A stretch of 64,000 bases of DNA, from positions 3,552,001-3,616,000 of the forward strand of contig OY969474.1 of NCBI GenBank assembly GCA_963700145.1. The letters run 5' to 3'. The notes beneath the pieces are model-generated. The model saw nothing but the letters and a program-made list of their open reading frames with translations, was not told where the DNA came from and did no database searches. This document shows positions 20,584-58,833 of this stretch, piece by piece. A program made the translations under genes and the position numbers. Position 1 is the stretch's first letter, and every line of letters begins with the position of its first letter. This DNA comes from an uncultured Acidobacteriota bacterium (lineage in GTDB: Bacteria; Acidobacteriota; Thermoanaerobaculia; Multivoradales; UBA5704).

Positions 20584-21029
20584 ACCTAGATGTTAGCGAG
20601 GCGGCGACCTTGAAGAGTGCCCATTGGCTTAGTCCGGGGGCATACGGCAACCCACGTCAGGTCAAAGAGTCCATGAAAGCAAACGACTTATCGCAGGGTG
20701 GGTCGGTCTGATCCCACAAATGAACTCCTGGCAAGCGGGACCACCGAAGATTAGAATCCTGGCCACTCCGGGCTCCCAATACTTGGTTGTCACGAGCTTC
20801 GCCCCCCGCGACTAATTATCGGAAGTTGAATCAGCAGAGTGGGTTACACCCTCATTCGGCGGGAGAATATTCAAGACATGGGAAGCAGTATCCCTTCTGG
20901 ACCTTGTCGCCATGGGTTTGGCCCGTCCTAGGGGAGCCGGGTGGTGATGAAGTCGGTAGTTACGTCCGCGATGATGTACTCCATGATGTTGCCAATCTCG
21001 TCGAGAAACTGCTCGGCGATGGTTGAGAC

Positions 21030-22488
21030 GGGGATGCCCCGTTCCCTGTTGAAAGCCGAAAGAGGGAAAGCGGCTCGGTTGATCATGCCACGGCCTTGGT
21101 GTTCGTCGGTTCCTCGATCGCCGCGAGCGCGAGCTCGAGAGCCCCGAGGTGCCGATGTCCCTTGACACGCCGGAAGCCAGCCTCCGCGTCACACAGCGCC
21201 AGGGCGACCCAGCGCAGCACCATGTCGCCGCCGCGCCAGCGCTTGACGTTGCGCGTCGTCGTACGGATCGAGCCGATCGTGTTCTCGATCGCGTTGGTCG
21301 AGGCGAGCAACCGGCGCAGAGCGTCGGGCAGCTTCAGCCGCAAGGCGGTGAGGGTCTCGTCGAGGCCCTCGCGCAGGCTGCCCGCGGCGCCCGCGTGGCC
21401 TGCGTGCTCGAGCCAGCGGGCAAGCTGCTCGAGGCGACGCTTGGCGAGGTCGAAGCGAGCGCTCTGGTAGGCCTCGACCATCAGGCGGTCGACCCGGGCT
21501 TGGAGCTGCTTGGGCAGGTGGTCGCGGACGTTGCGGCGCTTGTGGAGCTGGCAGCGCTGGACGTGGGTTGCGTCCCCGAAGACGGCGCGCACGGCCTTGC
21601 GCAGCCCCTTGCCGCCGTCGAGCACCGCCAAGAAGCGCGGCGGCATCGCGAGGCCTCGCTCCAACAGCTCCTGGAGCAGGCCGGTACAGAGCGCCGCGTT
21701 CTCCGTCGCGCCTTCACGCAGGCCGAGCACCCGCTTGGTCCCGTCGCGCGCGATGCCGAGTGCCACCACCAGGGTGTGGCCGGCCACCTCCAGCCCGTCG
21801 ATCATCAGGATCAGGGGCTGGAAGTCCGACAGGTCTCGGCGCAGCCACGCGCCCAGCAGACGACGCGTCCCCGCCACCAGCCGGCGCTGGACCGCACTCT
21901 TGCTCGTCGCGCGCTCCGGCACCGACTCTGCGAGCGGCTCCAAGCTCCGACCGTAGCGGCGCTGCGAGACGCCGACCAGCGCCTGCTCGATCACCCGCTC
22001 CGTGAAGGGATCTTCGTCCTGAAAGGCGCGCACCGAAGGCAAGCTCATCTCGCCACCGTCGCGTCGCCGGACGCGCGGTCGCGGCAGCGCCACCTGGCGG
22101 CCACCCAGCACGAACTCGCTCGCCGTCGAGCCCCAGCGGTACGCCTCGCGGGTCGGATTGCGCCGACGCTTCGGACCGACGACGGCCTCGACCTCGTCCG
22201 CGAGCTGCCGCCCCAGGGCCTCGACGCCCGCGGCGTGAAACAGCTCCAGCAGCCCCTGGCGGCTGGCCTCGATGCCCTCGACCATCGGCCGCAGCAGCGC
22301 TTGTAGCCCGTGGCTGATGCGCGCCGCACGGCCCCCTTGCCACACCACCCGCCTTTCTGCTCTCGTCTTCATCACGGCTCCTTGGCCCCCTGGCGGGGCC
22401 GGTTATTCGACCAACCCGATTCTCGATCAGGTGGGCCGAGGAGCCGCCTTCACCTCATTGCTCTTTCAACAGCGGGAGGGACAACCCC
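21030..22488 (-). mobile_element. IS256-family element, copy 1 (1459 bp)
   Basis: Imperfect IRs GGGGTTGTCCCTCCCGCTGTTGAAAG / GGGGATGCCCCGTTCCCTGTTGAAAG; flanks GGTTGAGAC and CGACGTTGG do not match each other. Confidence 0.95.
21083..22375 (-). CDS. IS256-family DDE transposase
   Basis: LMIDG, DGGKGL, QRCQLHK, STNAIE. Confidence 0.95.
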   Translation of the reverse strand: MMKTRAERRVVWQGGRAARISHGLQALLRPMVEGIEASRQGLLELFHAAGVEALGRQLADEVEAVVGPKRRRNPTREAYRWGSTASEFVLGGRQVALPRPRVRRRDGGEMSLPSVRAFQDEDPFTERVIEQALVGVSQRRYGRSLEPLAESVPERATSKSAVQRRLVAGTRRLLGAWLRRDLSDFQPLILMIDGLEVAGHTLVVALGIARDGTKRVLGLREGATENAALCTGLLQELLERGLAMPPRFLAVLDGGKGLRKAVRAVFGDATHVQRCQLHKRRNVRDHLPKQLQARVDRLMVEAYQSARFDLAKRRLEQLARWLEHAGHAGAAGSLREGLDETLTALRLKLPDALRRLLASTNAIENTIGSIRTTTRNVKRWRGGDMVLRWVALALCDAEAGFRRVKGHRHLGALELALAAIEEPTNTKAVA

Positions 22489-22519
22489 CGACGTTGGTAT
22501 CGAGGACTCGGATTACCAT
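22489..22519 (-). pseudogene. PIN (VapC) toxin 5' fragment interrupted by IS
   Basis: MVIRVLDTNV, starts overlapping the antitoxin stop; continues after IS copy 3. Confidence 0.75.
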
Positions 22520-22758
22520 CCGGGATCGCGATCCTTACGGACGATCTCGGCGCTATCCGCCATCGGTCCGAACGAGTCGCGGAGCCGCCGGAGGCGATTG
22601 ATGGCCTCGGCGGGCTCGTCGCCGCGCCCGAGTTCGCGGTCCAGGAGGGTTCGCGCCATCTCCGATATGCCGACTTGATGTTCCTGCGCCTCCCGCCGGA
22701 GACGCTCCACGAGAGCCTCGTCGAGCATCAGGTTCACGCGCTTGAGAGGAGAGGCCAT
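22513..22758 (-). CDS. Ribbon-helix-helix antitoxin-like protein
   Basis: KRVNLMLDEALVERLRREA...GISEMAR; DSAEIVRKDRD tail typical of VapB partners. Confidence 0.75.
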   Translation of the reverse strand: MASPLKRVNLMLDEALVERLRREAQEHQVGISEMARTLLDRELGRGDEPAEAINRLRRLRDSFGPMADSAEIVRKDRDPGW

Positions 22759-22799
22759 CGTCCGAAGCCGGCAGCTTACACATTGTACACACTTGGTCC

Positions 22800-22964
22800 G
22801 TGCTCCTGCCGGATGCGCTGACTTTCGCGATCCGCCATGACGTCACGGTGTACGACGCCGTGTTCGTCGTCCTCGCGCGGCAGCTCGGAGGCGAGCTCAT
22901 CACCGCCGACAGAGTGCTCTGGGACAAACTCGCCGGTGACTGCCCCTGGGTGAGGAAGCTGTAG
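22800..22964 (+). pseudogene. PIN-domain C-terminal fragment
   Basis: VLLPDALTFAIRHDVTVYDAVFVVLARQLGGELITADRVL; no N-terminal half in frame. Confidence 0.7.
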
Positions 22965-22985
22965 ATAAACGAAACCCCCACCGCT

Positions 22986-23654
22986 TCACGTCTCCCAGAA
23001 CTGATCGCGCAGCCCGATGCGGTCGAAGATCTGCCGGATCTCGGCGCCCATCGGGCGGCGCGCTTCGGGGGTGAGGCGACTCGCGTACCAGGCTTGGGCC
23101 AGCTCCCAGAGCTGGTCGAGGGAGACGAGCGGCCGCCGCGGCAGGTTGCGCTGCCGGCACCAGCGCTCGACGTGCTCTTCCGACCGGAAGAGGAGCATCG
23201 TGCTTCAGGTGTAGGCGATGTCGTCCCACCACTGCTTGGCGGGGACGGCGAAGTGGGCGACGCACGGCTCGGGCTCCGGCGCGCCGCCGCGCACCCGCAG
23301 CCCGATCGGCTCGCCGCAGCAGGCGCAGCTCGCCTCGACGTCGGCGTCCCGGTGCAGCGCCGCCGCGATCCCGAGCGCGTCCCAGACGCAGTTGCCGAAG
23401 TAGGAGCGCCCGCCCGAGCGCACCAGAAACGTCGTCGGCACCGCCGAGAACGGCGGCGCCATGACGATCTCCCCCGTCTCCGGCGCCAACGCCAGGAGCC
23501 GCCGCCCGTTCAGCCGCCGAAACGCCTCCAGCACCTCGGAGGCCCCGCACCCGAGCCGCCCCGCCACCTCCGCCGCTCGCGACGGGCGGCCGCTCTCGGC
23601 GGTGGTGCGGTAGACGTCGAGTTGGACTCTAGGGTCGAGGGTCTCGGGGTCCAT
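22986..23654 (-). CDS. MerB-like organomercurial lyase family protein, probable selenoprotein (UGA at 23207-23205)
   Basis: ORFs 23205..23654 and 22986..23198 share a frame across one TGA (DIAYT-U-STMLLF); MAPPFS, NCVWDALG and CACCG motifs. Confidence 0.85.
23175..23192 (-). promoter_or_regulatory. Candidate SECIS hairpin
   Basis: CTCTTCC-GGTC-GGAAGAG, stem starts +13 after the UGA, loop G at +20. Confidence 0.7.
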
Positions 23655-23715
23655 GGCGGAATCCTCGCACGGTCCGCCGCTAGGACGCGGCTGTTGCTAG
23701 GATCGCCACGAAGCC

Positions 23716-24339
23716 ATGGTCGAGATCCTGCCGATCGAGCGCGAGGAAGCCTTCTGGTCCGGCGTCGAGAACGCCAAGAGGTTCTTCATGGGCGAAGCCG
23801 ACGTGCAAAGGGCCCTGGAGCGGTTGGCGCGCCTGCTCGACGAGAAGGAAATCCCCTACGCCGTCATCGGCGCCATGGCGCTCAACGAGTGGGGCTACCG
23901 GCGGGTGACCGTTGACGTCGATGTCCTGCTGGCCCCCGAGGGGCTGAGCGCCCTCAAGGCCGAGGTTCTAGGCCGCGGCTACCTCGAGAAGTTCCCGGGG
24001 AGCCGCGGCCTGCGGGACACCGAAGCCGGCGTCAACGTCGACGTCGTCCTCGCCGGCGAGTACCCGGGGGACGGCAAGCCGAAGCCGGTCGTTTTTCCCG
24101 ACCCGGCGCAAGCCGCCGTCCGCGGCCGACGCGTGGCGCTCCTGCCCCTGCCGAAGCTCATCGAGCTCAAGCTGGCGTCAGGCCTGAGCGCGCCGCACCG
24201 CCTGAAGGACCTCGCCGACGTCCTGGAGCTCATCCGGCAGCTCGCCCTTCCCCGCGAAATGGCCGAGTCCCTCGACCCCTCGGTGCGGGCCAAGTACGAG
24301 GAGCTCTGGCAGGCGGCACAGACGCCGGAACGGGAGTGA
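23716..24339 (+). CDS. Nucleotidyltransferase-family protein (AbiEii/DUF6036-like)
   Basis: YAVIGAMAL...RVTVDVDVL, LIELKL, KDLADV. Confidence 0.75.
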   Translation: MVEILPIEREEAFWSGVENAKRFFMGEADVQRALERLARLLDEKEIPYAVIGAMALNEWGYRRVTVDVDVLLAPEGLSALKAEVLGRGYLEKFPGSRGLRDTEAGVNVDVVLAGEYPGDGKPKPVVFPDPAQAAVRGRRVALLPLPKLIELKLASGLSAPHRLKDLADVLELIRQLALPREMAESLDPSVRAKYEELWQAAQTPERE

Positions 24340-24344
24340 GCTCT

Positions 24345-24590
24345 ATGCCGACCTTGCAGCAGACCATCAAGGCAGTCGTCCGGCCCGGAGAGGACTCCGG
24401 CTACGTCGCCGAATGCGTCGAGATCGCCGTCGTCACGCAAGGCCGCACCCTCGACGAGACCGTCGCGAATCTGCGCGAGGCCGTGGGCCTGCACCTCGAG
24501 GGCGAGGACCCGGCAAGCTTCGGCCTGCGCCCGAACCCCACTTTGATCCTCACCCTGGAGCTCGAGCCGTCGCATGCCCGGGCTTCGTAG
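24345..24590 (+). CDS. hicB: HicB-family antitoxin
   Basis: GYVAEC...TQGRTLDETVANLREAVGLHL. Confidence 0.88.
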   Translation: MPTLQQTIKAVVRPGEDSGYVAECVEIAVVTQGRTLDETVANLREAVGLHLEGEDPASFGLRPNPTLILTLELEPSHARAS

Positions 24591-24813
24591 GCTTTCGGGC
24601 CGCGAAGTCGTTTCAACCCTTCAGCGCTTCGGGTTCCAACCCGTCTCCCAACGGGGCAGCCACATCAAGCTGCAACGGGAAACGCAGTCCGGGCGCCAGA
24701 CCCTGACGGTGCCGGCCCACAGCGAGCTCGATTCAGGGACCTTGCGCGCCATCTACCGCCAGGCGAGCCGCTTCGTTCCCGAGGACGATTTGCGCCCCCT
24801 CTTCTACGCCTGA
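24574..24813 (+). CDS. hicA: HicA-family toxin
   Basis: SGREVV..L.RFGF, QRGSHIKL, VPAH.EL..GTL..I. Confidence 0.9.
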   Translation: MPGLRRLSGREVVSTLQRFGFQPVSQRGSHIKLQRETQSGRQTLTVPAHSELDSGTLRAIYRQASRFVPEDDLRPLFYA

Positions 24814-24875
24814 GCCTGTTTCTCAGCAGGTCCCCCGGAGTCAGAATGGTCGCCGCACCAAGCCGTGAGGCCTCC

Positions 24876-25085
24876 GAGATAAGTCTCCGAGCCCTGAAGA
24901 TGAATCTCGGACTGCCCAAGATAGATCTTCAGCTATGAGAGATTGATTTCCCGGTCCCGGAGATAGATCTCGGTACATAGAAGATCTATCCCAGACCCTC
25001 CAAGATCTATCCCAGAGCCTCCAAGATTTATCCCGGCGTCCCCAAGATAAATCTCGGGCTCCCCAAGATAATCCTCGAGGACCTC
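24876..25085. repeat. 21-nt-periodic array, 10 units, palindromic core AGATNNATCT plus variable ~10 nt
   Basis: e.g. AAGATGAATCTcggactgccc, AAGATAGATCTtcagctatga, GAGATAGATCTcggtacatag, AAGATAAATCTcgggctcccc. Confidence 0.85.
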
Positions 25086-25340
25086 CAGAAACTGCCCGGC
25101 TCGCCACAAATCGTTCCGAGAGAAGGCGTTACGGGCGGCTACTCCTCCGAGCGGTCTTCCGGGCCGCCCACCGGAATGTCCTCCGGCTGGATCCACTCGA
25201 CCCGCCCGTCCCGCCACACCGCGATAGGGTTCCCCGCCTGCTTGTGCCGCAGCAGCGCCTCGCGCACGGACCTCGCAAGGATCTCTTGGATGCGGTAGGG
25301 ATCAAAGATCCTCTCAACTTCGTCGGGATCTACGTCGTTG

Positions 25341-26799
25341 GGGGTTGTCCCTCCCGCTGTTGAAAGAGCAATGAGGTGAAGGCGGCTCCTCGGCCCACCT
25401 GATCGAGAATCGGGTTGGTCGAATAACCGGCCCCGCCAGGGGGCCAAGGAGCCGTGATGAAGACGAGAGCAGAAAGGCGGGTGGTGTGGCAAGGGGGCCG
25501 TGCGGCGCGCATCAGCCACGGGCTACAAGCGCTGCTGCGGCCGATGGTCGAGGGCATCGAGGCCAGCCGCCAGGGGCTGCTGGAGCTGTTTCACGCCGCG
25601 GGCGTCGAGGCCCTGGGGCGGCAGCTCGCGGACGAGGTCGAGGCCGTCGTCGGTCCGAAGCGTCGGCGCAATCCGACCCGCGAGGCGTACCGCTGGGGCT
25701 CGACGGCGAGCGAGTTCGTGCTGGGTGGCCGCCAGGTGGCGCTGCCGCGACCGCGCGTCCGGCGACGCGACGGTGGCGAGATGAGCTTGCCTTCGGTGCG
25801 CGCCTTTCAGGACGAAGATCCCTTCACGGAGCGGGTGATCGAGCAGGCGCTGGTCGGCGTCTCGCAGCGCCGCTACGGTCGGAGCTTGGAGCCGCTCGCA
25901 GAGTCGGTGCCGGAGCGCGCGACGAGCAAGAGTGCGGTCCAGCGCCGGCTGGTGGCGGGGACGCGTCGTCTGCTGGGCGCGTGGCTGCGCCGAGACCTGT
26001 CGGACTTCCAGCCCCTGATCCTGATGATCGACGGGCTGGAGGTGGCCGGCCACACCCTGGTGGTGGCACTCGGCATCGCGCGCGACGGGACCAAGCGGGT
26101 GCTCGGCCTGCGTGAAGGCGCGACGGAGAACGCGGCGCTCTGTACCGGCCTGCTCCAGGAGCTGTTGGAGCGAGGCCTCGCGATGCCGCCGCGCTTCTTG
26201 GCGGTGCTCGACGGCGGCAAGGGGCTGCGCAAGGCCGTGCGCGCCGTCTTCGGGGACGCAACCCACGTCCAGCGCTGCCAGCTCCACAAGCGCCGCAACG
26301 TCCGCGACCACCTGCCCAAGCAGCTCCAAGCCCGGGTCGACCGCCTGATGGTCGAGGCCTACCAGAGCGCTCGCTTCGACCTCGCCAAGCGTCGCCTCGA
26401 GCAGCTTGCCCGCTGGCTCGAGCACGCAGGCCACGCGGGCGCCGCGGGCAGCCTGCGCGAGGGCCTCGACGAGACCCTCACCGCCTTGCGGCTGAAGCTG
26501 CCCGACGCTCTGCGCCGGTTGCTCGCCTCGACCAACGCGATCGAGAACACGATCGGCTCGATCCGTACGACGACGCGCAACGTCAAGCGCTGGCGCGGCG
26601 GCGACATGGTGCTGCGCTGGGTCGCCCTGGCGCTGTGTGACGCGGAGGCTGGCTTCCGGCGTGTCAAGGGACATCGGCACCTCGGGGCTCTCGAGCTCGC
26701 GCTCGCGGCGATCGAGGAACCGACGAACACCAAGGCCGTGGCATGATCAACCGAGCCGCTTTCCCTCTTTCGGCTTTCAACAGGGAACGGGGCATCCCC
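25341..26799 (+). mobile_element. IS256-family element, copy 2, with intact 9-bp TSD
   Basis: ACGTCGTTG at 25332-25340 and 26800-26808. Confidence 0.96.
25454..26746 (+). CDS. IS256-family DDE transposase
   Basis: Translation identical to copy 1. Confidence 0.95.
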   Translation: MMKTRAERRVVWQGGRAARISHGLQALLRPMVEGIEASRQGLLELFHAAGVEALGRQLADEVEAVVGPKRRRNPTREAYRWGSTASEFVLGGRQVALPRPRVRRRDGGEMSLPSVRAFQDEDPFTERVIEQALVGVSQRRYGRSLEPLAESVPERATSKSAVQRRLVAGTRRLLGAWLRRDLSDFQPLILMIDGLEVAGHTLVVALGIARDGTKRVLGLREGATENAALCTGLLQELLERGLAMPPRFLAVLDGGKGLRKAVRAVFGDATHVQRCQLHKRRNVRDHLPKQLQARVDRLMVEAYQSARFDLAKRRLEQLARWLEHAGHAGAAGSLREGLDETLTALRLKLPDALRRLLASTNAIENTIGSIRTTTRNVKRWRGGDMVLRWVALALCDAEAGFRRVKGHRHLGALELALAAIEEPTNTKAVA

Positions 26800-27348
26800 A
26801 CGTCGTTGTCGCGCCCCGCCGGAGCGTGCTCGCCACCCTTCTCCTGCGGTCCAGCAAGCTCTTGCTGTGCCCGGGCCAAGGCCTCGTCCCAGACCTGTTG
26901 GTCTCCTACCTCCTCGAGGATCATGACCGCAATCGCATCTTGGTCTGCGGGTGGAAGCTTCTCTGCGGCCTGCAGTGCCTGCTGCAGAAGAGGAGTCATT
27001 GGCCGCCAGAATACAGCCTCAATGCCCCAGGAGGGCAGCACCTATCTCTGCCGTCCACCAGTCCCGAGTCTGCCGATACGGTCTTCCGGAGTGGAGACCA
27101 ATGACTTCGCGCCATTTGGTACTCTGGAAACAACGATGCGTAAGAAGGCCTCTGCGGCAGTGGAACCGAAGCCGCCGTGAGACCGTTCGCGACGCTCTTC
27201 TTGCGCAGCCTGTCGCCCCGGAATGGCCGGTCGTCCCAACTGCCACCGCAGCCTTGGCGCGACTTGGTAGCCAATCTGTGCTTCTGCTCCAACCCTGCTC
27301 GAGCGCACTGCGACCTAATCCTGTTTCACGAGAAGAGGGAGTGGCAAG

Positions 27349-29790
27349 ATGAACATCGTTAAGAAGTTCAAAGATAGTGGCGCCACTTCCGAGGCTAAGG
27401 TCACTGTGGACATAAGCTACGACATCATCCGGCACGTGTCGGCGCAGCTCTACACGAGCCCCCGGAAAGCCATTGAAGAGCTAGTCTGCAACTCTTATGA
27501 CGCTGGCGCTTCCGAGTGCCATGTCACCGTGCCGCTACTCACCAAGGACCCCCTGCTCGTACTTGACAATGGCAAGTCGATGGATGTCCACGGCCTGCAC
27601 GGTTTATGGCAGGTCGCTAGCAGCCCAAAGGCGGTTCCGGACGGTCAGCCCAGAATTGCCAATCGCCGCATGCAAATAGGAAAGTTCGGGGTCGGAAAGC
27701 TCGCAGCTTTTGCTCTTGGAAGCAGTCTAACCCATGTCGCCTGCGTCAAGGGCGCTGTACGAATGATTTCAGTTAACCAAAGCCAGATTAGAGACAAGGC
27801 GCACGGAAGGCGGCCAACTTTCGACGTTTTCAACCTTCCGATGTCCAAGGCGAGGCCGCTTCTCGAAAATCTCTTAGCGGACCTTCCCAAGCCGTGGGAC
27901 CGAGGCTGGCCAACCTGGACTCTCGCGATGGTAGACAATATCGAAGAAGGCGCGATAGCGCAGTCGTTGAAGATTGGAATCCTGCGGCGCATGATTGCTT
28001 CGGCGCTCCCGATATCCTCGAAATTCAAAATATTCTTGCAAAAGGATCTCGTGCCCCTTCGAGAACTGGACCCCGAAAGCATCGAGGTCACCGTCAACGT
28101 ACTGGACAAGGCGTTCCGCGAGGTTCTCACCGCCTCACTGCGAGAGTACTGGGCGGAACGGCTTGGCGAAGCTCCAGAGGCGATCCCCACTGATCTCTAC
28201 ACCCTTCAAGTAGTGAAGGTTCCTGACCCAGAGAATGTTACGCGGCGCGTTACGGCGTTACATGTGCCAGACCTAGGAGCAATCTTTGGAAAGGCAGTCT
28301 CCACAAAGACTTCGCTCACTACGGATAAGCTAGAAGGGCGTGGCTACTCAAACAATGGCTTCGCGGTAACTGCGTATGGGAAGCTGATCAATCCGGAGGA
28401 CCCTCTCTTCGGGGTGACCCAGCGCAGTCACAAATACTGGAGCCGGTTTCTGGCGCGGGTGGAAATGCCGGGCCTCGATAAGGTTCTGTTGGTGCAACGG
28501 AATGCCGTCTCTGAAAACTCCCCCGAGGCCCAACTTGCCCGCGAGGTGCTCCGGTCGCTTTTCAATTACACCAGGACTCTTGTCGAAGCACACGAAGACA
28601 GCGACCAGTACGATCCCGGTTCCTTTGGTAAGCGGTTGGCGACGTCTTCACCAATCCTGGCACAAGCCGCCCTCAAGGGACTCTTTGAAGGTCCCGTCGG
28701 GCCAGACGATCTCCTCAAACTCTCGATCGAATTCGCCACGCTCGGCACATCCGGTCCTCCTGCCACACTGGACGCCGACTCAAGGACTCTCTTCGTCAAT
28801 GAAGACCATCCTCTTCTGGCCGCCATGGACCATCTCGGTGCCCTCTCTAAACAGATGCGCCGGGTCATCGGCGAGGTGCTCGGCGGGATTGAAGTTGGCA
28901 AGGGATATCTTCGCGCCCGCAGAGTGCCGGAGATTGTAATCACCGAGACAAGTGAGCTTCTTGATGCCTCTCAGCGGAGCGCCGCTGACTTCGTACGCGA
29001 TACCGCCGAGCAACACATTGCTGAGATTTATGACGCCTCCTTTGGCGGTAAGGAGCCTTTCGAGAAGGCGGTGGTTGAGGCCTTCCGCAGCCTGCGCTTG
29101 GCTGCCCACCATTATGGCAAGCCGGACCAACCCGACGGCATCATTGAAATTCCTCGATCTGGCGAGGGCAACCTTCGTATCTCAGTCGAGGCCAAGGGCA
29201 GCCACGGCCTGATCACTCATAAGGAGTTAAGTGAAGCAACGATCAGCCGCCACAGCGGTGACCATGCCTGCCAGCACGCCATTGCGATTGCCCGCGAGTT
29301 CGCCAAGGCGGGCCGCGCTGGCAAAGACAGTGCTCTCCTCCGGGAAACGAAGGGTAAGGTTCCTCTTCTTACGGTAGACGGCATTGCTCACATGCTTCGC
29401 TTGCATAAACGTCGGAACTTCACTTACGACAAGATCGCTCGGATTCTGACGACGTGGACCCATCCAGATGATCTCGTCCGGTTCATTGAGGAGATCTGGC
29501 GCGAACTGCCTGAGCTTGGCCTTATGCGCTTGATCCTCACCGTAGCGCACGACCTCATCACGCAGGACTCCACTAACCTCCCTGAGGTGGGGATGATTCT
29601 CGCAGACCCACGCATCCGCAAGAAGAAGGTCAAGAGAGAGGATGTTGTTACTGTTCTCGAGGCTGTTCAGATTACGACGAGGATGATTACAATCATCGAT
29701 CCGAGTGCTCACCGCTTCGAGCTGAACGCCCCCGTCCAGACAATTCTGGAGGCGATGCAGGTGGAAGGACTCTCCGATAGTTCGCACTGA
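27349..29790 (+). CDS. GHKL (MORC/HSP90-like) ATPase fused to PD-(D/E)xK nuclease
   Basis: EELVCNSYDA, DNGKSM, GKFGVG; later FEKAV...PDGII...VEAK; lower GC than the host genes. Confidence 0.82.
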   Translation: MNIVKKFKDSGATSEAKVTVDISYDIIRHVSAQLYTSPRKAIEELVCNSYDAGASECHVTVPLLTKDPLLVLDNGKSMDVHGLHGLWQVASSPKAVPDGQPRIANRRMQIGKFGVGKLAAFALGSSLTHVACVKGAVRMISVNQSQIRDKAHGRRPTFDVFNLPMSKARPLLENLLADLPKPWDRGWPTWTLAMVDNIEEGAIAQSLKIGILRRMIASALPISSKFKIFLQKDLVPLRELDPESIEVTVNVLDKAFREVLTASLREYWAERLGEAPEAIPTDLYTLQVVKVPDPENVTRRVTALHVPDLGAIFGKAVSTKTSLTTDKLEGRGYSNNGFAVTAYGKLINPEDPLFGVTQRSHKYWSRFLARVEMPGLDKVLLVQRNAVSENSPEAQLAREVLRSLFNYTRTLVEAHEDSDQYDPGSFGKRLATSSPILAQAALKGLFEGPVGPDDLLKLSIEFATLGTSGPPATLDADSRTLFVNEDHPLLAAMDHLGALSKQMRRVIGEVLGGIEVGKGYLRARRVPEIVITETSELLDASQRSAADFVRDTAEQHIAEIYDASFGGKEPFEKAVVEAFRSLRLAAHHYGKPDQPDGIIEIPRSGEGNLRISVEAKGSHGLITHKELSEATISRHSGDHACQHAIAIAREFAKAGRAGKDSALLRETKGKVPLLTVDGIAHMLRLHKRRNFTYDKIARILTTWTHPDDLVRFIEEIWRELPELGLMRLILTVAHDLITQDSTNLPEVGMILADPRIRKKKVKREDVVTVLEAVQITTRMITIIDPSAHRFELNAPVQTILEAMQVEGLSDSSH

Positions 29791-29796
29791 GGGCTT

Positions 29797-31170
29797 ATGC
29801 AAGATTCCGAACCCCGCCCCCCTAGTTGCGACTTGGCTGTCACGCCCTTGTGTCCCTCGGCGTTGTTGGGATGGGATGATTCTCATGGTCATCGCTTTAC
29901 TCATGACTTGTTCAAATTCCCCGGCAAATTTCACCCACCGATTGTCGAGAACATCCTTAAGCGCCTCTGCCCGCGCACCGTGATCGATCCGATGGCGGGC
30001 GTTGGCACCGTATCTGTTGAGGCGAAGGCCGCGGGAATAGCGTCGCTCTCCATTGACGTCGATCCAGTCAGCGTCTTCATAGCCCGTGCTAAGACGACTC
30101 CCATCTCGCGCGCGGCTCTTGAAGATGCCTGGAGTGACTTTCAACCGGTCCTCCGACGGATCCGGAGGTCCGCAAGAGAGATTGAGCGCCTGCGATTCGA
30201 GGATATTGCTCTAGCCACGATGCGCAGGCGCCTGGCTACGAACGGCCACAGGGGACTTGCTTCCCTCCAGTACTGGTTTCGTCGGTATGTTCTCGCCGAT
30301 TTTGCCCTCCTCGATCACTCGATTTGGAACGGCGGGTTGGAACGGCGTGGAGCGGTAGTGCGCCGGTTTTTCAAGGCCTGCCTGCTGAGCGCGGTGAGGC
30401 GTATCAGCAATGCAGATCCGTATCCAGTTAGCGGCCTGGAGATAACGAAGCATATGCGGGAGAGGCTTACTCATGGATACGTCATCGACGTTGCGAGCGA
30501 GTTCGAGCGCCGAGTGCTTCTCAATATTGAGCGAATGGCGGCATTCTATCAATACCTCGAGGAGCGTCGACAGCTAGGTACGCCGGTTCAGATAATTCAG
30601 GCTGATTGCATCAGACTCGTGCAGATCAAGGAGCGGTGGGCCCCTGAGGTGGATCTCATACTATTTTCGCCACCGTACTGCAACGCCATCGAGTACTGGC
30701 GGCGGCATCGGCTTGAGTATTTCCTGGGAGGGTTCCTTACCCCGGATGCCATTCCGGAAATTCAGAGGCGTTTCATAGGTCGACGCACGATCGGCCGTCG
30801 CTCGGCCGAAAGGCCACCATCTCTCAACCAGAAGCAGATAGACCTGCAAATCAAGTCTCTGCATGAAGAAGGACGTCGGGAAAAGGCATGGCAACTTTGG
30901 AATTACTTTCACGACATGGGTTTACGGCTAGAGGTGTTCTGCGAAACTCTGCGCGCGGGTGGCGTGGCGGTTCTCGTCGTCGGTGACAGCCACACCGGTG
31001 GACACAGAATTCCGACAGCGGCCATTCTGCAGGACCTAGCCGAGAAGAAGGGTTTCGCGGTTGAGACTACTGCTTGTTACTCGATCATGAACCGCTCAAT
31101 GCAGTATCCCCTGAAGGAAGGCTCCGCGAAGATTGCGGACGAGACCATCGTCGTTCTGCGCAAACCGTAG
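29797..31170 (+). CDS. DNA methyltransferase, probably N4-cytosine
   Basis: FPGKF, DPMAGVGT (motif I), FSPPY (motif IV). Confidence 0.88.
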   Translation: MQDSEPRPPSCDLAVTPLCPSALLGWDDSHGHRFTHDLFKFPGKFHPPIVENILKRLCPRTVIDPMAGVGTVSVEAKAAGIASLSIDVDPVSVFIARAKTTPISRAALEDAWSDFQPVLRRIRRSAREIERLRFEDIALATMRRRLATNGHRGLASLQYWFRRYVLADFALLDHSIWNGGLERRGAVVRRFFKACLLSAVRRISNADPYPVSGLEITKHMRERLTHGYVIDVASEFERRVLLNIERMAAFYQYLEERRQLGTPVQIIQADCIRLVQIKERWAPEVDLILFSPPYCNAIEYWRRHRLEYFLGGFLTPDAIPEIQRRFIGRRTIGRRSAERPPSLNQKQIDLQIKSLHEEGRREKAWQLWNYFHDMGLRLEVFCETLRAGGVAVLVVGDSHTGGHRIPTAAILQDLAEKKGFAVETTACYSIMNRSMQYPLKEGSAKIADETIVVLRKP

Positions 31171-31315
31171 GAGAGGTTCGGAGTCGAGCCTGCGCAGCAA
31201 CGGCTCTGTGCGGATCGGGAGTGCCTGGCGGCGGGGGTGCGGGAAGTTTCGGTTGGACTCCGCAGTGAGCGAAGCTCTGTCGAATGAAGTAGTTGTCTCA
31301 TTCCGCCAAGCGCCG

Positions 31316-31525
31316 CGGGAAATGCCGCGGGCGTTCCGGAGAATGCCGCAGCCGCTGCGGGGAACCCCGCAGGCGGTGAGGAAAATGCCGCAGCGACCGC
31401 GGCGAATCTCGCAAGCGCTGGGGGAAATGCCGTCGTGGCCGGGGGAAATGCCTCAGCCGTTCCGGGAAACGCCGCAGCCGCCGTGGGAAATGCCTCCGCG
31501 GGTGCGGCGACGTCTCCGACGGCTC
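31316..31525. repeat. 21-nt-periodic array, ~10 units, consensus near CGGGAAATGCCGCAGCCGNTG
   Basis: cgggaaatgccgcgggcgttc / cggagaatgccgcagccgctg / ggggaaatgcctcagccgttc etc. Confidence 0.8.
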
Positions 31526-31605
31526 TTCAGCGAGGGATGGGACGGCGAATGGGATGGGTTGGCAGGAGCGTGGAACAGGTCCGGCCGCGACCGGGCGGCT
31601 CGGCC

Positions 31606-31772
31606 GGCGATTGGGCTGGGTACGCGGACGAATGGGACAGGTACACCGGCGATTGGGCTGGGTACGCCGGCGATTGGGACAGGTACGGCCGCGAATGGGA
31701 CAGGTACGCGCGCGAATGGGCTAGGTACAGCGGCGATTGGGACAGGTACGCGGCGTACCCAGCCCATTCGCG
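31606..31772. repeat. 21-nt tandem array, 7 units plus one inverted unit
   Basis: GCGA(T/A)TGGG(CTG/ACA)GGTAC units; inverted copy GCGTACCCAGCCCATTCGCG at 31753-31772. Confidence 0.88.
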
Positions 31773-31908: not shown

Positions 31909-31985
31909 TGGTGCAGCCAGGAGGAGTCGAACCCCCAACCTACAGATCCGTAGTCTGTCGCTCTATCCAGTTGAGCTATGGCTGC
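31909..31985 (-). tRNA. tRNA-Arg(ACG)
   Basis: GCAGCCATAGCTCAACTGGATAGAGC...ACAGA-CTACGGA-TCTGT...GGTTCGACTCC...GGCTGCACCA, full cloverleaf with CCA. Confidence 0.97.
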
Positions 31986-47393: not shown

Positions 47394-47458
47394 GGCCGCC
47401 GGCAGTATACCGCGCGCCTTCCGGGTGGGACGGCGGCGGTTGCCATGATCCGCCGCAC

Positions 47459-50143: not shown

Positions 50144-50163
50144 CGCGGACGGACGGCGCCCGC

Positions 50164-50199
50164 AAAGCGAAGAGCCCGCGGCCGGATGACCGCGGGCTC
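50164..50199 (-). terminator. Intrinsic terminator hairpin (copy 1 of 3)
   Basis: GAGCCCGCGG-N8-CCGCGGGCTC with T-rich tail on the minus strand. Confidence 0.7.
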
Positions 50200-50230
50200 C
50201 TGAGGACGGGCGGCGAAACGCCTTACTGCT

Positions 50231-51142
50231 CTACTGCTTGACGAGCGGAGACAGGGCGCCGGTGTTGGCCCCATTGCCGGAGAAGTAGTTGTCGCCGAAC
50301 GAGCCCACCGACCCGGCGGTGATGGTGAAGCCCGCCGTCGGGTTGTTGGTGATCGCGCTGCGCGACAGCCGGACGGTCGAGGTGCCGGCCGTGGTGATGC
50401 CGCGGGTGTTGTGCGAGATCACCGAGTTGTCGACGTTCACCTGGCCGTTGCCGGCGGCGTCGACGCCCGCGATCGTGTTGCCGCTGGCGGTCGCGGCCTC
50501 GAGGGTGAAGATCGCGCCGTTTCCGGCGAAGATGCCCGTGGCGTTGTTGGCGAGGATCGAGTCCGTGATCTGCACCTTGGCGACCGGGGAGCCGACGCTC
50601 GGGAAGACCGCGACGCCGGCGGCGATGTTGTTGGCGATCGTCGATTCGCTGATGAAGACCTGCGTCGTGGCGAGGGAGCCGATGTTGATGTCCACCCCGC
50701 GGCCCGGGTTGCCGCGGAAGCCGGTGATGTCGCAGTTCTCGATGTGCACCGCCTTGGCGCTCAGGATGCGCACGCCGTTGAGGCCGGTGCCCGCGCCGTT
50801 GATCGACAGGTTGCGCAGGGTGATGGTGTCGGTCGAGAGGGCATTGATGATGACCCCGTTCACACCGGCGGCGAGGATGCCGGCGAGGGTCCCTTCGCCG
50901 TTGATGGTGATCGACTTGGTGATCGTGACGCCGCCGAAGCCGCCCGGATCGAGCACGCTGATCTCGCCGCCGGCCGCGGTCTTCGAGATCGCGCCGGCGA
51001 AGGTCTTGCACGGCGCCGTACGGCTGCACGGGTTGGCGTCGTCGCCGACGCCGGAGACCCAGGTGCGCGTCGCCTGCGCCTGAGCGCTCATGGCGACGAC
51101 GACGAGAATTAGGGCGTAAAGGATCGCGCAACGGCTACGCAT
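50231..51142 (-). CDS. Secreted right-handed beta-helix protein, paralog A
   Basis: Signal peptide; QATRTWVSGVGDDANPCSRTAPCKTFAGA; N/G/I-rich repeats. Confidence 0.88.
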   Translation of the reverse strand: MRSRCAILYALILVVVAMSAQAQATRTWVSGVGDDANPCSRTAPCKTFAGAISKTAAGGEISVLDPGGFGGVTITKSITINGEGTLAGILAAGVNGVIINALSTDTITLRNLSINGAGTGLNGVRILSAKAVHIENCDITGFRGNPGRGVDINIGSLATTQVFISESTIANNIAAGVAVFPSVGSPVAKVQITDSILANNATGIFAGNGAIFTLEAATASGNTIAGVDAAGNGQVNVDNSVISHNTRGITTAGTSTVRLSRSAITNNPTAGFTITAGSVGSFGDNYFSGNGANTGALSPLVKQ

Positions 51143-51221
51143 CTCTGGTCTCCTCCCAGTCAGTTGTGAGAACGACAAAAACGGAGAAGGAGTGTACACC
51201 GGCTGCGGCGCTAGACGCAAG

Positions 51222-51258
51222 AAAGCGAAAGAGCCCGCGGCCGGCAGGCCGCGGGCTC
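51222..51258 (-). terminator. Intrinsic terminator hairpin (copy 2)
   Basis: Same stem as at 50172. Confidence 0.7.
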
Positions 51259-51281
51259 CTGAGGACGGGCGCTAAGCGCCC

Positions 51282-52199
51282 TTACTGCTTGATGAGCGGC
51301 GAGAGGGCGCCGGTGTTGGCCCCGTTGCCGGAGAAGTAGTTGTCGGCGAACGAGCCGATCGTCCCGCCGGTGATCGTGAAGCCCGCCGTCGGGTTGTTGG
51401 TGATCGCGCTGCGCGACAGACGGACCGTCGAGGTGCCGGCCGTCGTGATCCCGCGCAGGTTGTGCGAGATCACCGAGTTGTCGACGTTCACCTGGCCCGG
51501 CGCGACGGTGCCAGCGCTGTCGATGCCCGCCACGGTGTTGCCGCTGACTGTCGTCGCCTCGAGGGTAAAGATCGCGCCCTCGCCGGCGAAGACGCCCGAG
51601 GCGTTGTTGGCGAGGATCGAGTCCGTGATCTGCACCTTGACGGTCGGCGTGCCGCTGATGGGGACGACGGCGACGCCGGCGGCGATGTTGTTGCCGATCG
51701 TCGACTCGCTGATGAAGACCTGGGTCGAGGTGCCGGTCGAGAGGTTGATGTCCACGCCGCGGCCCGGGCTGCCGCGGAAGCCGGTGATGTCGCAGTTCTC
51801 GATGTGCACCGCCTTGGCGCTCAGGATGCGCACGCCGCGCAGGCCGTTGCCCGCGCCGTTGATCGACAAGTTGCGGAGGACGACGGTGTCGGTGGAGGTG
51901 GCATTGATGATGACGCCGTTGATGAGGGAGGCGAGGATGCCGCCGAGCGACCCTTCACCGTTGATGGTGATCGACTTGGTGATCGTGACGCCGCCGAAGC
52001 CGCCCGGATCGAGCACGCTGATCTCGCCGCCGGGCGCGGTCTTGGAGATCGCGCCGGCGAAGGTCTTGCACGGCGCCGTGCGGCTGCACGGGTTCGCGTC
52101 GTTGCCGACGCCGGACACCCACGTCCGTGTCGCCTGCGCCTGAGCGCTCATGGCAACGACGAGGATAAGAATGTAAAGGACGGCGCAATGCTTACGCAT
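51282..52199 (-). CDS. Secreted right-handed beta-helix protein, paralog B
   Basis: Closely similar to paralogs A and C. Confidence 0.88.
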   Translation of the reverse strand: MRKHCAVLYILILVVAMSAQAQATRTWVSGVGNDANPCSRTAPCKTFAGAISKTAPGGEISVLDPGGFGGVTITKSITINGEGSLGGILASLINGVIINATSTDTVVLRNLSINGAGNGLRGVRILSAKAVHIENCDITGFRGSPGRGVDINLSTGTSTQVFISESTIGNNIAAGVAVVPISGTPTVKVQITDSILANNASGVFAGEGAIFTLEATTVSGNTVAGIDSAGTVAPGQVNVDNSVISHNLRGITTAGTSTVRLSRSAITNNPTAGFTITGGTIGSFADNYFSGNGANTGALSPLIKQ

Positions 52200-52254
52200 C
52201 TCTGCTCCTCCGTTGGTTGTGATAACTGAAAAAACGGACAGGAATCATACACCG

Positions 52255-52290
52255 AAAGCGAAGAGCCCGCGGCCGGCAGGCCGCGGGCTC
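52255..52290 (-). terminator. Intrinsic terminator hairpin (copy 3)
   Basis: Same stem as at 50172. Confidence 0.7.
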
Positions 52291-52311
52291 CCGAGGACAA
52301 GCGCGAAAACG

Positions 52312-53229
52312 CTACTGCTTGATGAGCGGCGAGAGGGCGCCGGTGTTGGCCCCGTTGCCGGAGAAGTAGTTGTCGCCGAACGAGCCGATCGTCCCGCCGG
52401 TGATCGTGAAGCCCGCCGTCGGGTTGTTGGTGATCGCGCTGCGCGACAGCCGAACCGTCGAGGTGCCGGCCGTGGTGATGCCGCGGGTGTTGTGCGAGAT
52501 CACCGAGTTGTCGACGTTCACCTGGCCCGGCGCGATGGTGCCGGCGGCGTCGATGCCCGCGATCGTGTTGCCGCTGGCGGTCGCGTTCTCGAGCGTGAAG
52601 ATCCCGCCCTCGCCGGCGAAGACGCCCGAGGCGTTGTTGGCGAGGATCGAGTCGGTGATCTGCACCTTGGCGGTCGGCGTGCCGCTGGTGGGGACGACCG
52701 CGACGCCGGCGGCGATGTTGTTGGTGACCGTCGACTCGCTGATGAAGACCTGCGTCGAAGTGCCGGTGGCGAGGTTGACGTCCACGCCGCGGCCCGGGCT
52801 GCCGCGGAAGCCGCTGATGTCGCAGTTCTCGATGTGCACCGCCTTGGCGCTCAGGACGCGCACGCCGCGGAGGCCGTTGCCCACGCCGTTGATGGCGATG
52901 TGACGGAGGGTGATGGTGTCGGTGGCGGCGGCGTTGATGGTCACCCCGGTCACCAGCGAGGCGGTGATGCCGGCGAGCTGCCCTTCACCGTTGATGGTGA
53001 TGGACTTGGTGATGGTGACGGCGCCGAAGCTGCCCGGATCGAGGACGCTGATCTCGCCGCCGGCCGCGGTCTTGGAGATCGCGCCCGCGAAGGTCTTGCA
53101 GGGCGCGGTGCGGCTGCACGGGTTGACGTCGTCGCCGACGCCGGAGACCCAGGTCCGTGTCGCCTGCGCCTGAGCGCTCATGGCGACGACGAGAATGAAG
53201 ACATACAGGAACGCGCAACGGCTACGCAT
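52312..53229 (-). CDS. Secreted right-handed beta-helix protein, paralog C
   Basis: Closely similar to paralogs A and B. Confidence 0.88.
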   Translation of the reverse strand: MRSRCAFLYVFILVVAMSAQAQATRTWVSGVGDDVNPCSRTAPCKTFAGAISKTAAGGEISVLDPGSFGAVTITKSITINGEGQLAGITASLVTGVTINAAATDTITLRHIAINGVGNGLRGVRVLSAKAVHIENCDISGFRGSPGRGVDVNLATGTSTQVFISESTVTNNIAAGVAVVPTSGTPTAKVQITDSILANNASGVFAGEGGIFTLENATASGNTIAGIDAAGTIAPGQVNVDNSVISHNTRGITTAGTSTVRLSRSAITNNPTAGFTITGGTIGSFGDNYFSGNGANTGALSPLIKQ

Positions 53230-53328
53230 CTTTGCTCTCCTCCGGTTAGTTGTGAGGTCTTCGGCGATCGGGAAACGAAAATGTTACACCCGCCGGGAGC
53301 GGATGGCAACTTGCGCGAGCGCAATTTA

Positions 53329-55805: not shown

Positions 55806-55867
55806 GGTCGCGCCGCGAATCTATCAGCCGCCGTTTGATGAGCGGCGGTCCGGCGAGCTGGCTGCCC

Positions 55868-56785
55868 TCAGGGACAGGTGTCGAACGCGTTGGTGTCCTG
55901 CACCGGCTGGAAGGGCGTCCCGAGGTCGTTCAAGTAGATCTGCTGTGCCCCGGTGTGGCTGTCCGTGACGTAGATGTCGACTTGGACGTCCGTCAGGCCG
56001 CCGGCGAACACCCAGAACCTCCCGAACGGGGCGCAGGCGTCGAGCACCTTGATGACGACCTCGACGTTGCTGGGGCTGAAGAACCAGAGGTAGCCGGTGT
56101 CGTCGGTGAGCTTGACCACCGCGGCGCGGCCCGCCGCGGTCTGCGTCCGCCAGAAAGCCACCACCTCGAAGCGCTCCTGGTTGAGGCAAAGGACGTGCGA
56201 CAGGGCGGCGCAGGTGTGGGGGACCTTGAGAGCGACGTTGTCGAAGTGTGCCACCGCCTCGCCCCCCGCGCCGAACTTGGCGACGACGAGCCCGATCCGG
56301 ACGCCTCGCGCCTCCAGCGGCACGGTGAAGCGGAGCCCGGCGTCGGGGCTCGGATGCCAGGCGCCGTCCGTCACCTCCCCGGCGAACCCCCCGGTGCCGA
56401 GGAACTCGCTGCCCGGGCTGCACGTCGGGTCGTTGTACCAGGTGATCGGGGTATGCACGATCGCCGTCACCCCGCCCGTCGCCTCGAGGCGGTAGTCGTA
56501 GCGGCGCACGAGCACCATGCCGCCGGTCACCGGGACGCACTCGGAGAACGCGATCTCGGCGGCGTTGGCCGCCGGATGCGCGATGGAGGTGCGCAGCGAC
56601 CCCGAGTTCGGCAAGCCGAAGGCATCGATCGGGCTGAAGGTGGGGGGCGAAGTGAACCCCTCCCACGGCGCGACGTTAGTGTCGAAGGTGCCGTTCTGGA
56701 GCAGGTTCTGCGCCGCCGCCGGCGCAGCGCCGCAGCAGAGCACGACCGCGAGGGCAAGGCAGCGGCAGCGTCGGTTCGTCGCCAA
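55868..56785 (-). CDS. Secreted protein with carbohydrate-binding-like N-terminus and conserved C-terminal beta domain
   Basis: Signal peptide; NLLQNGTFD; LCLNQERFEV...WFF...NVEVVIKVLDAC...FWVFAGGLTDV. Confidence 0.78.
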   Translation of the reverse strand: MATNRRCRCLALAVVLCCGAAPAAAQNLLQNGTFDTNVAPWEGFTSPPTFSPIDAFGLPNSGSLRTSIAHPAANAAEIAFSECVPVTGGMVLVRRYDYRLEATGGVTAIVHTPITWYNDPTCSPGSEFLGTGGFAGEVTDGAWHPSPDAGLRFTVPLEARGVRIGLVVAKFGAGGEAVAHFDNVALKVPHTCAALSHVLCLNQERFEVVAFWRTQTAAGRAAVVKLTDDTGYLWFFSPSNVEVVIKVLDACAPFGRFWVFAGGLTDVQVDIYVTDSHTGAQQIYLNDLGTPFQPVQDTNAFDTCP

Positions 56786-56834
56786 GTTGTTCGACCTCCT
56801 GAAGTGGTTCAGAGAATATCGCAGGCAACGACGT

Positions 56835-57140
56835 TCAACGCTCGCCCCGGTCCTGGTCCAGCAGCTCGGCCGAGGTGATGCCTTCGAGGGCGGCCGGCAT
56901 CCGCTCGTAGATCTCCGGCCGGTTCGGGCCGCCCAGCCGGATGCTCCCCCGCCGGACGAGCTCGGCGAGGCCTGGATAGCGCTGCAGCAGGTCGAGCTGG
57001 TGCTCGTTCCGCGGCTCGGGCGGCCGCAGCTCGGCCACCACCTGGCTGCGATCGGTGACCAGGACGGTTTCCCCTTGCCGCACTTTGCGCACGTAGTCGC
57101 TCAGCCGTTTCTTCAGCTCGCGGATGTCGACACTGTGCAT
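56835..57140 (-). CDS. Phd/YefM-family antitoxin
   Basis: VDIRELKKRLSDYVRKVRQGETVLVTDR...VAEL. Confidence 0.85.
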   Translation of the reverse strand: MHSVDIRELKKRLSDYVRKVRQGETVLVTDRSQVVAELRPPEPRNEHQLDLLQRYPGLAELVRRGSIRLGGPNRPEIYERMPAALEGITSAELLDQDRGER

Positions 57141-57310
57141 GGCCCGGAAATGTTCCGCGTGTAGCCATCTGGGCAACGGCCGGTAGCGCGGCCTTCGTCC
57201 GATTGCTTCCTGACTATCACCAAGCCGATTCGTGGTGAAGCTCGCGGAGCACGCACCCAGACCTTAGGCCACCAAGCCCCTCACCGGGCGGCACGGTGAC
57301 GGTCTCAACC

Positions 57311-58769
57311 GGGGTTGTCCCTCCCGCTGTTGAAAGAGCAATGAGGTGAAGGCGGCTCCTCGGCCCACCTGATCGAGAATCGGGTTGGTCGAATAACCGG
57401 CCCCGCCAGGGGGCCAAGGAGCCGTGATGAAGACGAGAGCAGAAAGGCGGGTGGTGTGGCAAGGGGGCCGTGCGGCGCGCATCAGCCACGGGCTACAAGC
57501 GCTGCTGCGGCCGATGGTCGAGGGCATCGAGGCCAGCCGCCAGGGGCTGCTGGAGCTGTTTCACGCCGCGGGCGTCGAGGCCCTGGGGCGGCAGCTCGCG
57601 GACGAGGTCGAGGCCGTCGTCGGTCCGAAGCGTCGGCGCAATCCGACCCGCGAGGCGTACCGCTGGGGCTCGACGGCGAGCGAGTTCGTGCTGGGTGGCC
57701 GCCAGGTGGCGCTGCCGCGACCGCGCGTCCGGCGACGCGACGGTGGCGAGATGAGCTTGCCTTCGGTGCGCGCCTTTCAGGACGAAGATCCCTTCACGGA
57801 GCGGGTGATCGAGCAGGCGCTGGTCGGCGTCTCGCAGCGCCGCTACGGTCGGAGCTTGGAGCCGCTCGCAGAGTCGGTGCCGGAGCGCGCGACGAGCAAG
57901 AGTGCGGTCCAGCGCCGGCTGGTGGCGGGGACGCGTCGTCTGCTGGGCGCGTGGCTGCGCCGAGACCTGTCGGACTTCCAGCCCCTGATCCTGATGATCG
58001 ACGGGCTGGAGGTGGCCGGCCACACCCTGGTGGTGGCACTCGGCATCGCGCGCGACGGGACCAAGCGGGTGCTCGGCCTGCGTGAAGGCGCGACGGAGAA
58101 CGCGGCGCTCTGTACCGGCCTGCTCCAGGAGCTGTTGGAGCGAGGCCTCGCGATGCCGCCGCGCTTCTTGGCGGTGCTCGACGGCGGCAAGGGGCTGCGC
58201 AAGGCCGTGCGCGCCGTCTTCGGGGACGCAACCCACGTCCAGCGCTGCCAGCTCCACAAGCGCCGCAACGTCCGCGACCACCTGCCCAAGCAGCTCCAAG
58301 CCCGGGTCGACCGCCTGATGGTCGAGGCCTACCAGAGCGCTCGCTTCGACCTCGCCAAGCGTCGCCTCGAGCAGCTTGCCCGCTGGCTCGAGCACGCAGG
58401 CCACGCGGGCGCCGCGGGCAGCCTGCGCGAGGGCCTCGACGAGACCCTCACCGCCTTGCGGCTGAAGCTGCCCGACGCTCTGCGCCGGTTGCTCGCCTCG
58501 ACCAACGCGATCGAGAACACGATCGGCTCGATCCGTACGACGACGCGCAACGTCAAGCGCTGGCGCGGCGGCGACATGGTGCTGCGCTGGGTCGCCCTGG
58601 CGCTGTGTGACGCGGAGGCTGGCTTCCGGCGTGTCAAGGGACATCGGCACCTCGGGGCTCTCGAGCTCGCGCTCGCGGCGATCGAGGAACCGACGAACAC
58701 CAAGGCCGTGGCATGATCAACCGAGCCGCTTTCCCTCTTTCGGCTTTCAACAGGGAACGGGGCATCCCC
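57311..58769 (+). mobile_element. IS256-family element, copy 3
   Basis: Same ends as copies 1 and 2; flanks GTCTCAACC and CCAACGTCG. Confidence 0.95.
57424..58716 (+). CDS. IS256-family DDE transposase
   Basis: Translation identical to copies 1 and 2. Confidence 0.95.
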   Translation: MMKTRAERRVVWQGGRAARISHGLQALLRPMVEGIEASRQGLLELFHAAGVEALGRQLADEVEAVVGPKRRRNPTREAYRWGSTASEFVLGGRQVALPRPRVRRRDGGEMSLPSVRAFQDEDPFTERVIEQALVGVSQRRYGRSLEPLAESVPERATSKSAVQRRLVAGTRRLLGAWLRRDLSDFQPLILMIDGLEVAGHTLVVALGIARDGTKRVLGLREGATENAALCTGLLQELLERGLAMPPRFLAVLDGGKGLRKAVRAVFGDATHVQRCQLHKRRNVRDHLPKQLQARVDRLMVEAYQSARFDLAKRRLEQLARWLEHAGHAGAAGSLREGLDETLTALRLKLPDALRRLLASTNAIENTIGSIRTTTRNVKRWRGGDMVLRWVALALCDAEAGFRRVKGHRHLGALELALAAIEEPTNTKAVA

Positions 58770-58833
58770 CCAACGTCGTCGCGAAGTGGTTTTTTCAAAG
58801 AGGATGGCACCGACAGGGCCGAGGCCCTTCTGA
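58770..58833 (+). pseudogene. Continuation of the split PIN toxin gene
   Basis: (T)NVVAKWFF then, with one T removed from the 6-T run, KEDGTDRAEALL. Confidence 0.65.

Follow-up and report, generated by a model that had tools for sequence, protein, structure and literature searches.

The 64-kb window analyzed here (64,000 nucleotides of contig OY969474.1 from the genome of an uncultured Acidobacteriota bacterium) holds three copies of an insertion sequence (IS) of the IS256 family, each 1,459 bp long and with zero differences among them. The two outer copies face in opposite directions and bound a 34,822-bp segment that we found to be inverted relative to related genomes. This segment contains accessory genes, a tRNA-Arg gene, sdh-like genes, thiG, panC, panB, a Ser/Thr kinase gene, beta-helix repeat genes, and the genes for a Na/H exchanger and a Phd antitoxin (Table 1).

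The element has one open reading frame (ORF) of 430 aa, a Mutator-type transposase that scores 217.7 bits against NF033543 (the NCBIfam IS256 cutoff being 150) and matches PF00872, and by its sequence it is a member of the IS256 family. The transposase shows MIDG at residue 191, VLDG at 251, CxxHK at 275, and NAIEN at 361, with the DDE residues and the C/DxxH motif present. The roles of the DDE and C/DxxH motifs are described in PMC7780238. The element resembles ISCth4 and IS256, as treated there, in its single DDE transposase, its C/DxxH motif, its imperfect terminal inverted repeats (20 of the first 26 bases match), and its 8- to 9-bp target duplications. However, ISCth4 and IS256 have TGTAAA and A/T-rich targets, whereas the window element has GC-rich targets and, at both ends, the subterminal motif TGTTGAAA in place of TGTAAA; a TGTAAA-like motif is conserved, but not defining, in the family. 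We found no match to the element in any of the four congeners searched, in which repeats may be unassembled, and no end-to-end circle joint was listed among the assembled contigs compared with the window. The near-identity of the copies, together with the lack of a match in the congeners, points to a recent burst that produced about 21 of them in this genome.

The original prediction had read the inversion from target duplications that appeared to be swapped between the outer copies. All four 9-mers are present, and they are reciprocal reverse complements: the bases at 21021-29 match those at 57302-10 (duplication X), and those at 22489-97 match those at 58770-78 (duplication Y). Copy 2 shows the normal direct duplication of 9 bp (ACGTCGTTG) ascribed to it. 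When the flanks of all 21 genomic copies were compared with one another, the 5′ flank of each outer window copy equaled the 3′ flank of the other over 9 bp, and the only further match to either was one of 6 bp, to window copy 2. Because the two exchanged 9-mers occur in the genome at frequencies of 1.2e-6 and 1.6e-5 per position, the reciprocal double match is not attributable to chance. Both target sites also exist in an empty state. An intact paralogue (C1:2640921-2641064) spans the empty site X with 75% identity over 145 columns and extends 32 bp past the duplication (E=3.9e-19); we take it to resemble an AtuA/DUF1446 gene. The empty site Y is spanned by the intact PIN genes of genomes G001 and G062.

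We then compared the window with five relatives (G001 to G004 and G006), using its left flank, inner block, and right flank as queries and aligning the contigs retrieved in this way back to the window genome. At the left breakpoint, two of the five genomes carry the un-flipped order (contigs G004:C55 and G001:C423), in which the left flank is followed directly by the far end of the block in reverse, with the Phd antitoxin and the Na/H exchanger genes. At the right breakpoint, the reversed sdh-tRNA-Arg end is joined to the right flank, again in two of the five (G004:C27 and G003:C299). The exchanger gene is likewise reversed amid left-flank genes in G003:C239, with a local shuffle, and the assembled core order was found in none of the five relatives. 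In addition, in a related strain (sequencing run X1), one 870-bp contig passes from 23231-22986 straight into 58863-59350, and both the IS element and the PIN module are missing at this join. The comparison with relatives, which the prediction had named as a check, thus gave the un-flipped order at both breakpoints, and together with the X1 contig joining 22986 to 58863 it confirms that the segment 22489-57310 is inverted in this genome. Weighing against this, neither un-flipped join was seen in G002 or G006, which are uninformative for these joins, and a 390-bp match to the left flank lies in G002:C100 on the strand that also carries the tRNA block. We rejected this match as a counter-signal, since it is a lone fragment of an ORF with multiple paralogues, and the block around it maps elsewhere in the window genome. 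The GC skew of the inverted segment (+0.008) differs from that of the flanks (-0.020 and -0.013) by an amount within the local scatter.

The joins in the relatives, the X1 contig, and the intact genes that span the empty sites X and Y indicate that the assembled order is the derived one, and the boundaries of genomic islands here are accordingly to be read in the restored order. With no match to the element in the four congeners, whose repeats may be unassembled, the arrangement seems recent and restricted to this genome.

Table 1. Features of the inversion and its surroundings in the 64-kb window
Feature	Position	Strand	Remarks
Half of duplication X (GGTTGAGAC)	21021..21029	+	In non-coding remnant of a gene
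IS256-family window copy 1	21030..22488	-	1,459 bp; left boundary of inversion; PF00872 E=4.5e-33
Half of duplication Y (CGACGTTGG)	22489..22497	+	In DTNVV codons of PIN pseudogene
Inverted segment	22489..57310	.	34,822 bp; from synteny with relatives and Pfam
Ribbon-helix-helix antitoxin-like gene	22513..22758	-	81 aa; 88% identical to the one preceding the intact G001 PIN gene
PIN 3′ third	22800..22964	+	Faces away from 5′ part; 48/53 identical to G001 PIN residues 86-138
HicB-like and HicA genes	24336..24813	+	HicA PF07927 E=6.5e-17; HicB-like only below cutoff
IS256-family window copy 2	25341..26799	+	Direct duplication ACGTCGTTG at 25332-40 and 26800-08; splits small open frame
GHKL-ATPase protein (813 aa) and DNA methyltransferase (457 aa) genes	27349..31170	+	Weak type II restriction enzyme matches for the GHKL protein
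tRNA-Arg(ACG)	31909..31985	-	3′ side faces accessory stretch
Other half of duplication X (GTCTCAACC)	57302..57310	+	
IS256-family window copy 3	57311..58769	+	Transposase 57424-58716 (430 aa); right boundary of inversion
Other half of duplication Y (CCAACGTCG)	58770..58778	+	
PIN 5′ part, continuation	58779..58847	+	Extra T (58790-95) and missing G relative to G001; ends at second small-inversion breakpoint
AAA_14 and DUF4143 ATPase gene	58943..60064	+	First gene past inversion
MntA nucleotidyltransferase gene	63319..63765	+	HepT partner starts at 63767 and extends beyond window end

The flanks of the other genomic copies point to further events of this kind. Thirteen of the 21 copies retain their own target duplication (10 of 9 bp and 3 of 8 bp), five have that of another copy, and three match no flank. 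The copies at 1826499 (+), 4944181 (-), and 5026575 (+) exchange their duplications in a three-way cycle (G000:C1 1826499-5028033), which predicts two further inversions, one of 3.12 Mb and an adjacent one of 81 kb, and the three ancestral joins predicted from the cycle are present in two, four, and four of four congeners, respectively. The 3.12-Mb inversion is roughly symmetric about dnaA, with arms of 1.64 and 1.47 Mb; dnaA was located by a motif scan, and oriC was assumed to lie near it. All three inversions are short or roughly dnaA-symmetric, compared with 12 of 98 inverted pairs, and the implied probability for three such inversions, about 0.002, is too strong because the thresholds were set post hoc. 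Two results count against inversion by recombination between copies: GC skew and 6-mer strand polarity, the latter by principal component analysis, gave no usable replichore signal, and a close inverted pair, copies 2 and 3 of the genome-wide set, has unexchanged flanks at a spacing of 3.4 kb. As controls, we considered other IS families. A 4-copy IS256-like family (1.36 kb) has its own duplication at all four copies; an 8-copy family gives no information because it always inserts at CTAG; and in a 5-copy family with duplications of 3 to 4 bp, four of five match by eye. The orphan copies, which match no flank, lie at G000:C1 1358590, 5154902, and 5444020, and the one at 5154902 has the 9-mer CCGCAGGTC on both sides, each 2 bp off the IS end, an unexplained offset duplication.

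An assembly misjoin would yield the same swapped flanks and the same conflict with the relatives. The chromosome would then carry both insertions with matched duplications, the assembler having crossed between identical inverted repeats, or a mixed population would carry both orientations. The outer copies offer no distinguishing base, the genome has a completeness score of 95.4%, and no spanning reads were seen. Twenty-three sequencing runs are listed, all as contigs, and it speaks against the inversion that no contig spans an IS copy with both flanks in the four runs compared at copy 1 and the two compared at copy 3. The contigs of run X2 show no differences from the window; the IS is a single 1,459-bp contig with identical ends and a depth of 54, compared with about 2 to 5 for single-copy DNA, and contigs cross the 57310/57311 and 58769/58770 junctions with 29 bases of the IS each. 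However, X2 may be the source sample, so its contigs are not independent support, and junction contigs cannot tell the orientation because a crossover leaves each IS end beside the flank that it already adjoined. Against a misjoin, the genome was assembled into a single 5.46-Mb contig, and 13 of the 21 copies in it, like all four of the 1.36-kb family, have matching duplications of their own; this correct pairing suggests reads longer than the repeat. Furthermore, random misjoins would rarely all be short or dnaA-symmetric, as the three inversions are by the post hoc count given above. We consider an assembly error quite unlikely; the inversion is real in the assembly and probably real in the cell.

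The target site Y lies in a PIN gene whose remains are now found at both ends of the inversion. Compared with the G001 gene, whose frame of 139 codons is intact (Pfam PIN, E=3.8e-12), the window gene has an extra T in the run at 58790-95, which is also present in an X2 contig, and one G is missing, with the frame shifting after KWFF; 143 bp of its middle are missing and were not found elsewhere in the genome. An older inversion of 375 bp comprises the promoter, the antitoxin gene, and the 5′ part of the PIN gene, so that their orientation to the 3′ third is reversed. Its breakpoints, at 22794 and about 58845, lack an IS, and at the left junction only 3 to 4 bp are shared. This inversion would have preceded the large flip, because the two breakpoints adjoin only in the restored order. 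Hence, the suggestion that reversing the segment rejoins a PIN gene was correct for the 5′ end, which is rejoined, but not for the gene, which stays broken by the frameshift, the loss of 143 bp, and the inverted 3′ third. We rejected the idea that flipping the segment back restores a working PIN gene, given the two 1-bp indels, the 143-bp loss, and the older inversion. After the large inversion was reversed, no full-length PIN frame was found that would make up an intact type II toxin-antitoxin pair with the ribbon-helix-helix gene.

Both breakpoints of the large inversion are thus in already broken sequence, and since this sequence is dead, the predicted effect of the flip is small. This bears on a functional explanation, in which the flip would be a reversible switch or a selected separation or silencing of defence-like genes beside the tRNA-Arg gene, as the position of the right breakpoint within a stretch of restriction-modification and toxin-antitoxin genes might suggest. 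At neither breakpoint did we see an intact gene or operon interrupted, and the element was not found in the four congeners, whose repeats may be unassembled, so that the arrangement looks recent and private; we regard such a function as highly improbable.

We consider it probable that the two outer copies inserted independently and that homologous recombination between them then inverted the segment. During the recent burst, the near-identical copies would have landed largely in dispensable DNA, one of them into the gene remnant beside the Phd antitoxin gene at site X and another, in the opposite direction, into the PIN pseudogene at site Y. A host homologous crossover within the 1,459 bp of identity would then have flipped the segment, with copy 2 carried along. 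We favor this order of events because elements of the family are described as moving by copy-out/paste-in via circles, with an own duplication for each new copy (PMC7780238), because most copies here keep their duplication, and because the closest published case, an IS256 inversion in Staphylococcus aureus OC8, was modeled in the same two steps of insertion and then recombination (PMC5065196). The short or roughly dnaA-symmetric form of all three inversions, by the post hoc count given above, also speaks for recombination. No intermediate genome, with both copies, their own duplications, and the un-flipped order, was found.

Several observations fit a rival route, a one-step inversion driven by the transposase, in which a single copy at X or Y attacks the other site, duplicates itself, and flips the DNA between. 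Intramolecular transposition of this type leaves exactly the flanks that we observed (PMC4471558), and as the window copies are identical, this pair does not discriminate between the two routes, nor can a crossover be mapped in it by markers. The one-step route can be modeled as IS26-like, or via an IS-dimer junction as IS30 can use; IS30, a copy-out/paste-in element, gives inversions and deletions by intramolecular reactions (PMC9333248), and because of this precedent we keep the route as a possible, if doubtful, one. Eight of the 21 copies are without their own duplication, compared with none of four in the second IS256-like family, and the copies cluster locally, with three within 38 kb. 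Moreover, copies 17 (4944181-4945639) and 18 (5026575-5028033), which bound the 81-kb inversion, have two private changes in common, 112 bp apart, that cause Q138stop and G175D in the transposase. A conversion tract of 113 bp in the crossover would explain these changes, but they fit a parent-daughter pair equally well. However, they include a nonsense codon, so the donor in a one-step event would need transposase in trans, and the route demonstrated for the family is the one via circles (PMC7780238). The 4-copy control family is too small for the difference in duplications to be telling, and recombination grows in proportion to how many inverted pairs there are; OC8 has a similar mix, with 3 of 19 heterogeneous flanks, under the recombination model (PMC5065196). 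That the element reshuffles the host chromosome by one-step transposase-driven events, and not by recombination, seems unlikely to us. It would explain the three inversions, the three orphan copies, and the private changes of copies 17 and 18, and a family known for copy-out/paste-in would thereby gain a replicative route to inversion.

Similar cases are found in the literature. The inversion of OC8, called MbIN, is bounded by IS256 and spans 1.04 Mb (PMC5065196). As in the window genome, OC8 has about 20 near-identical, clustered IS256-family copies with 8- to 9-bp duplications, most of them direct; heterogeneous flanks mark inversions or deletions, and an inversion between an inverted pair splits a genomic island. 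The two cases differ in host and in the IS256-family element, and here the swap is perfectly reciprocal, without a deletion, over 35 kb, with two further inversions forming a three-copy cycle. For OC8, moreover, an isolate was sequenced and its inversion is used as a marker in PCR, whereas the window inversion is known from an assembly and contigs. Variants of pSK1 contain a 3.5-kb IS256-mediated and a 42.7-kb IS257-mediated inversion (PMC6496109), which were likewise read from reverse-complement target duplications at IS-bounded inversions, but in plasmid-derived DNA of a clinical lineage with a time series. IS26, by intramolecular replicative transposition in trans, reaches the same end state of two inverted copies and an inverted duplication; however, it is an IS6-family element that gives rise to cointegrates and seldom retains direct duplications, which 13 of the 21 copies keep here (PMC4471558). 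IS256-bounded inversions diagnosed from exchanged duplications are therefore already published, and the window case is an ordinary rearrangement of a well-known kind. The event itself matters little; its weight would be greater if the inversions were the work of the transposase. It is a worked example in which the flanks alone predicted four breakpoint joins, in the window and elsewhere, that relatives confirmed, and in which one recent IS burst appears to have rearranged the chromosome of a soil bacterium three times.

The original prediction also placed the genes near the tRNA-Arg gene in one contiguous accessory block. In the restored order, the tRNA-Arg gene is followed by the genes for the methyltransferase and the GHKL protein, the small frame split by copy 2, HicAB, a nucleotidyltransferase-like gene, a MerB-like gene, the PIN module, the AAA-DUF4143 ATPase, a BNR protein, and MntA-HepT. 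The stretch from tRNA-Arg to MntA-HepT is thus continuous once restored, but it is not one defined element. The relative G004 retains the nucleotidyltransferase gene, the MerB-like gene, and part of MntA in this order, and G001 retains the PIN module, the AAA gene, and MntA-HepT, while the GHKL, methyltransferase, and HicAB genes were not found in the 10 relative loci tested. We rejected a tRNA-integrated element with an att repeat, as the tRNA 3′ end has no second exact match of at least 14 bp in the genome. No integrase was found among the 65 window ORFs scanned with Pfam, a scan that took only part of the ORFs. Because the gene content differs among relatives and no att repeat was found, we regard the stretch as a variable region and not as a defined mobile unit.

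Some of its components showed features of their own. The GHKL/methyltransferase pair has a GC content of 56.6%, compared with 71.5% for the genome, and resembles restriction-modification systems of the BbrUII/HgiDII type, far below the cutoff. Short tandem-like repeats in non-coding DNA at 31540-31755 and about 24900-25130 flank this pair. An in-frame TGA (DIAYT*STMLLF), which is conserved in G004, interrupts the MerB-like gene (22986-23654, minus strand); read through this codon, the gene matches the MerB model over its full length, though below the cutoff. The genome carries a tRNA-SeC gene, and the MerB-like gene is likely to encode a selenoprotein. Selenoproteins related to MerB reportedly form a family with a CU site (10.1101/2022.07.06.499078); in the window gene, a Thr precedes the TGA instead. 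Upstream of the AAA gene, an inverted repeat (TTTTCACCC...GGGTGAAAA, 58873-58924) is conserved in G001, with a similar stretch in G004. To the left of the inversion, a TIR-domain gene (20098-20583, minus strand) with a ThsB-like match overlaps a 476-aa ORF (18671-20101, minus strand) that has no Pfam or NCBIfam match and of which a part has several genomic paralogues. Within the inverted segment, three tandem beta-helix genes (50160-53256) are about 87% identical in their DNA.

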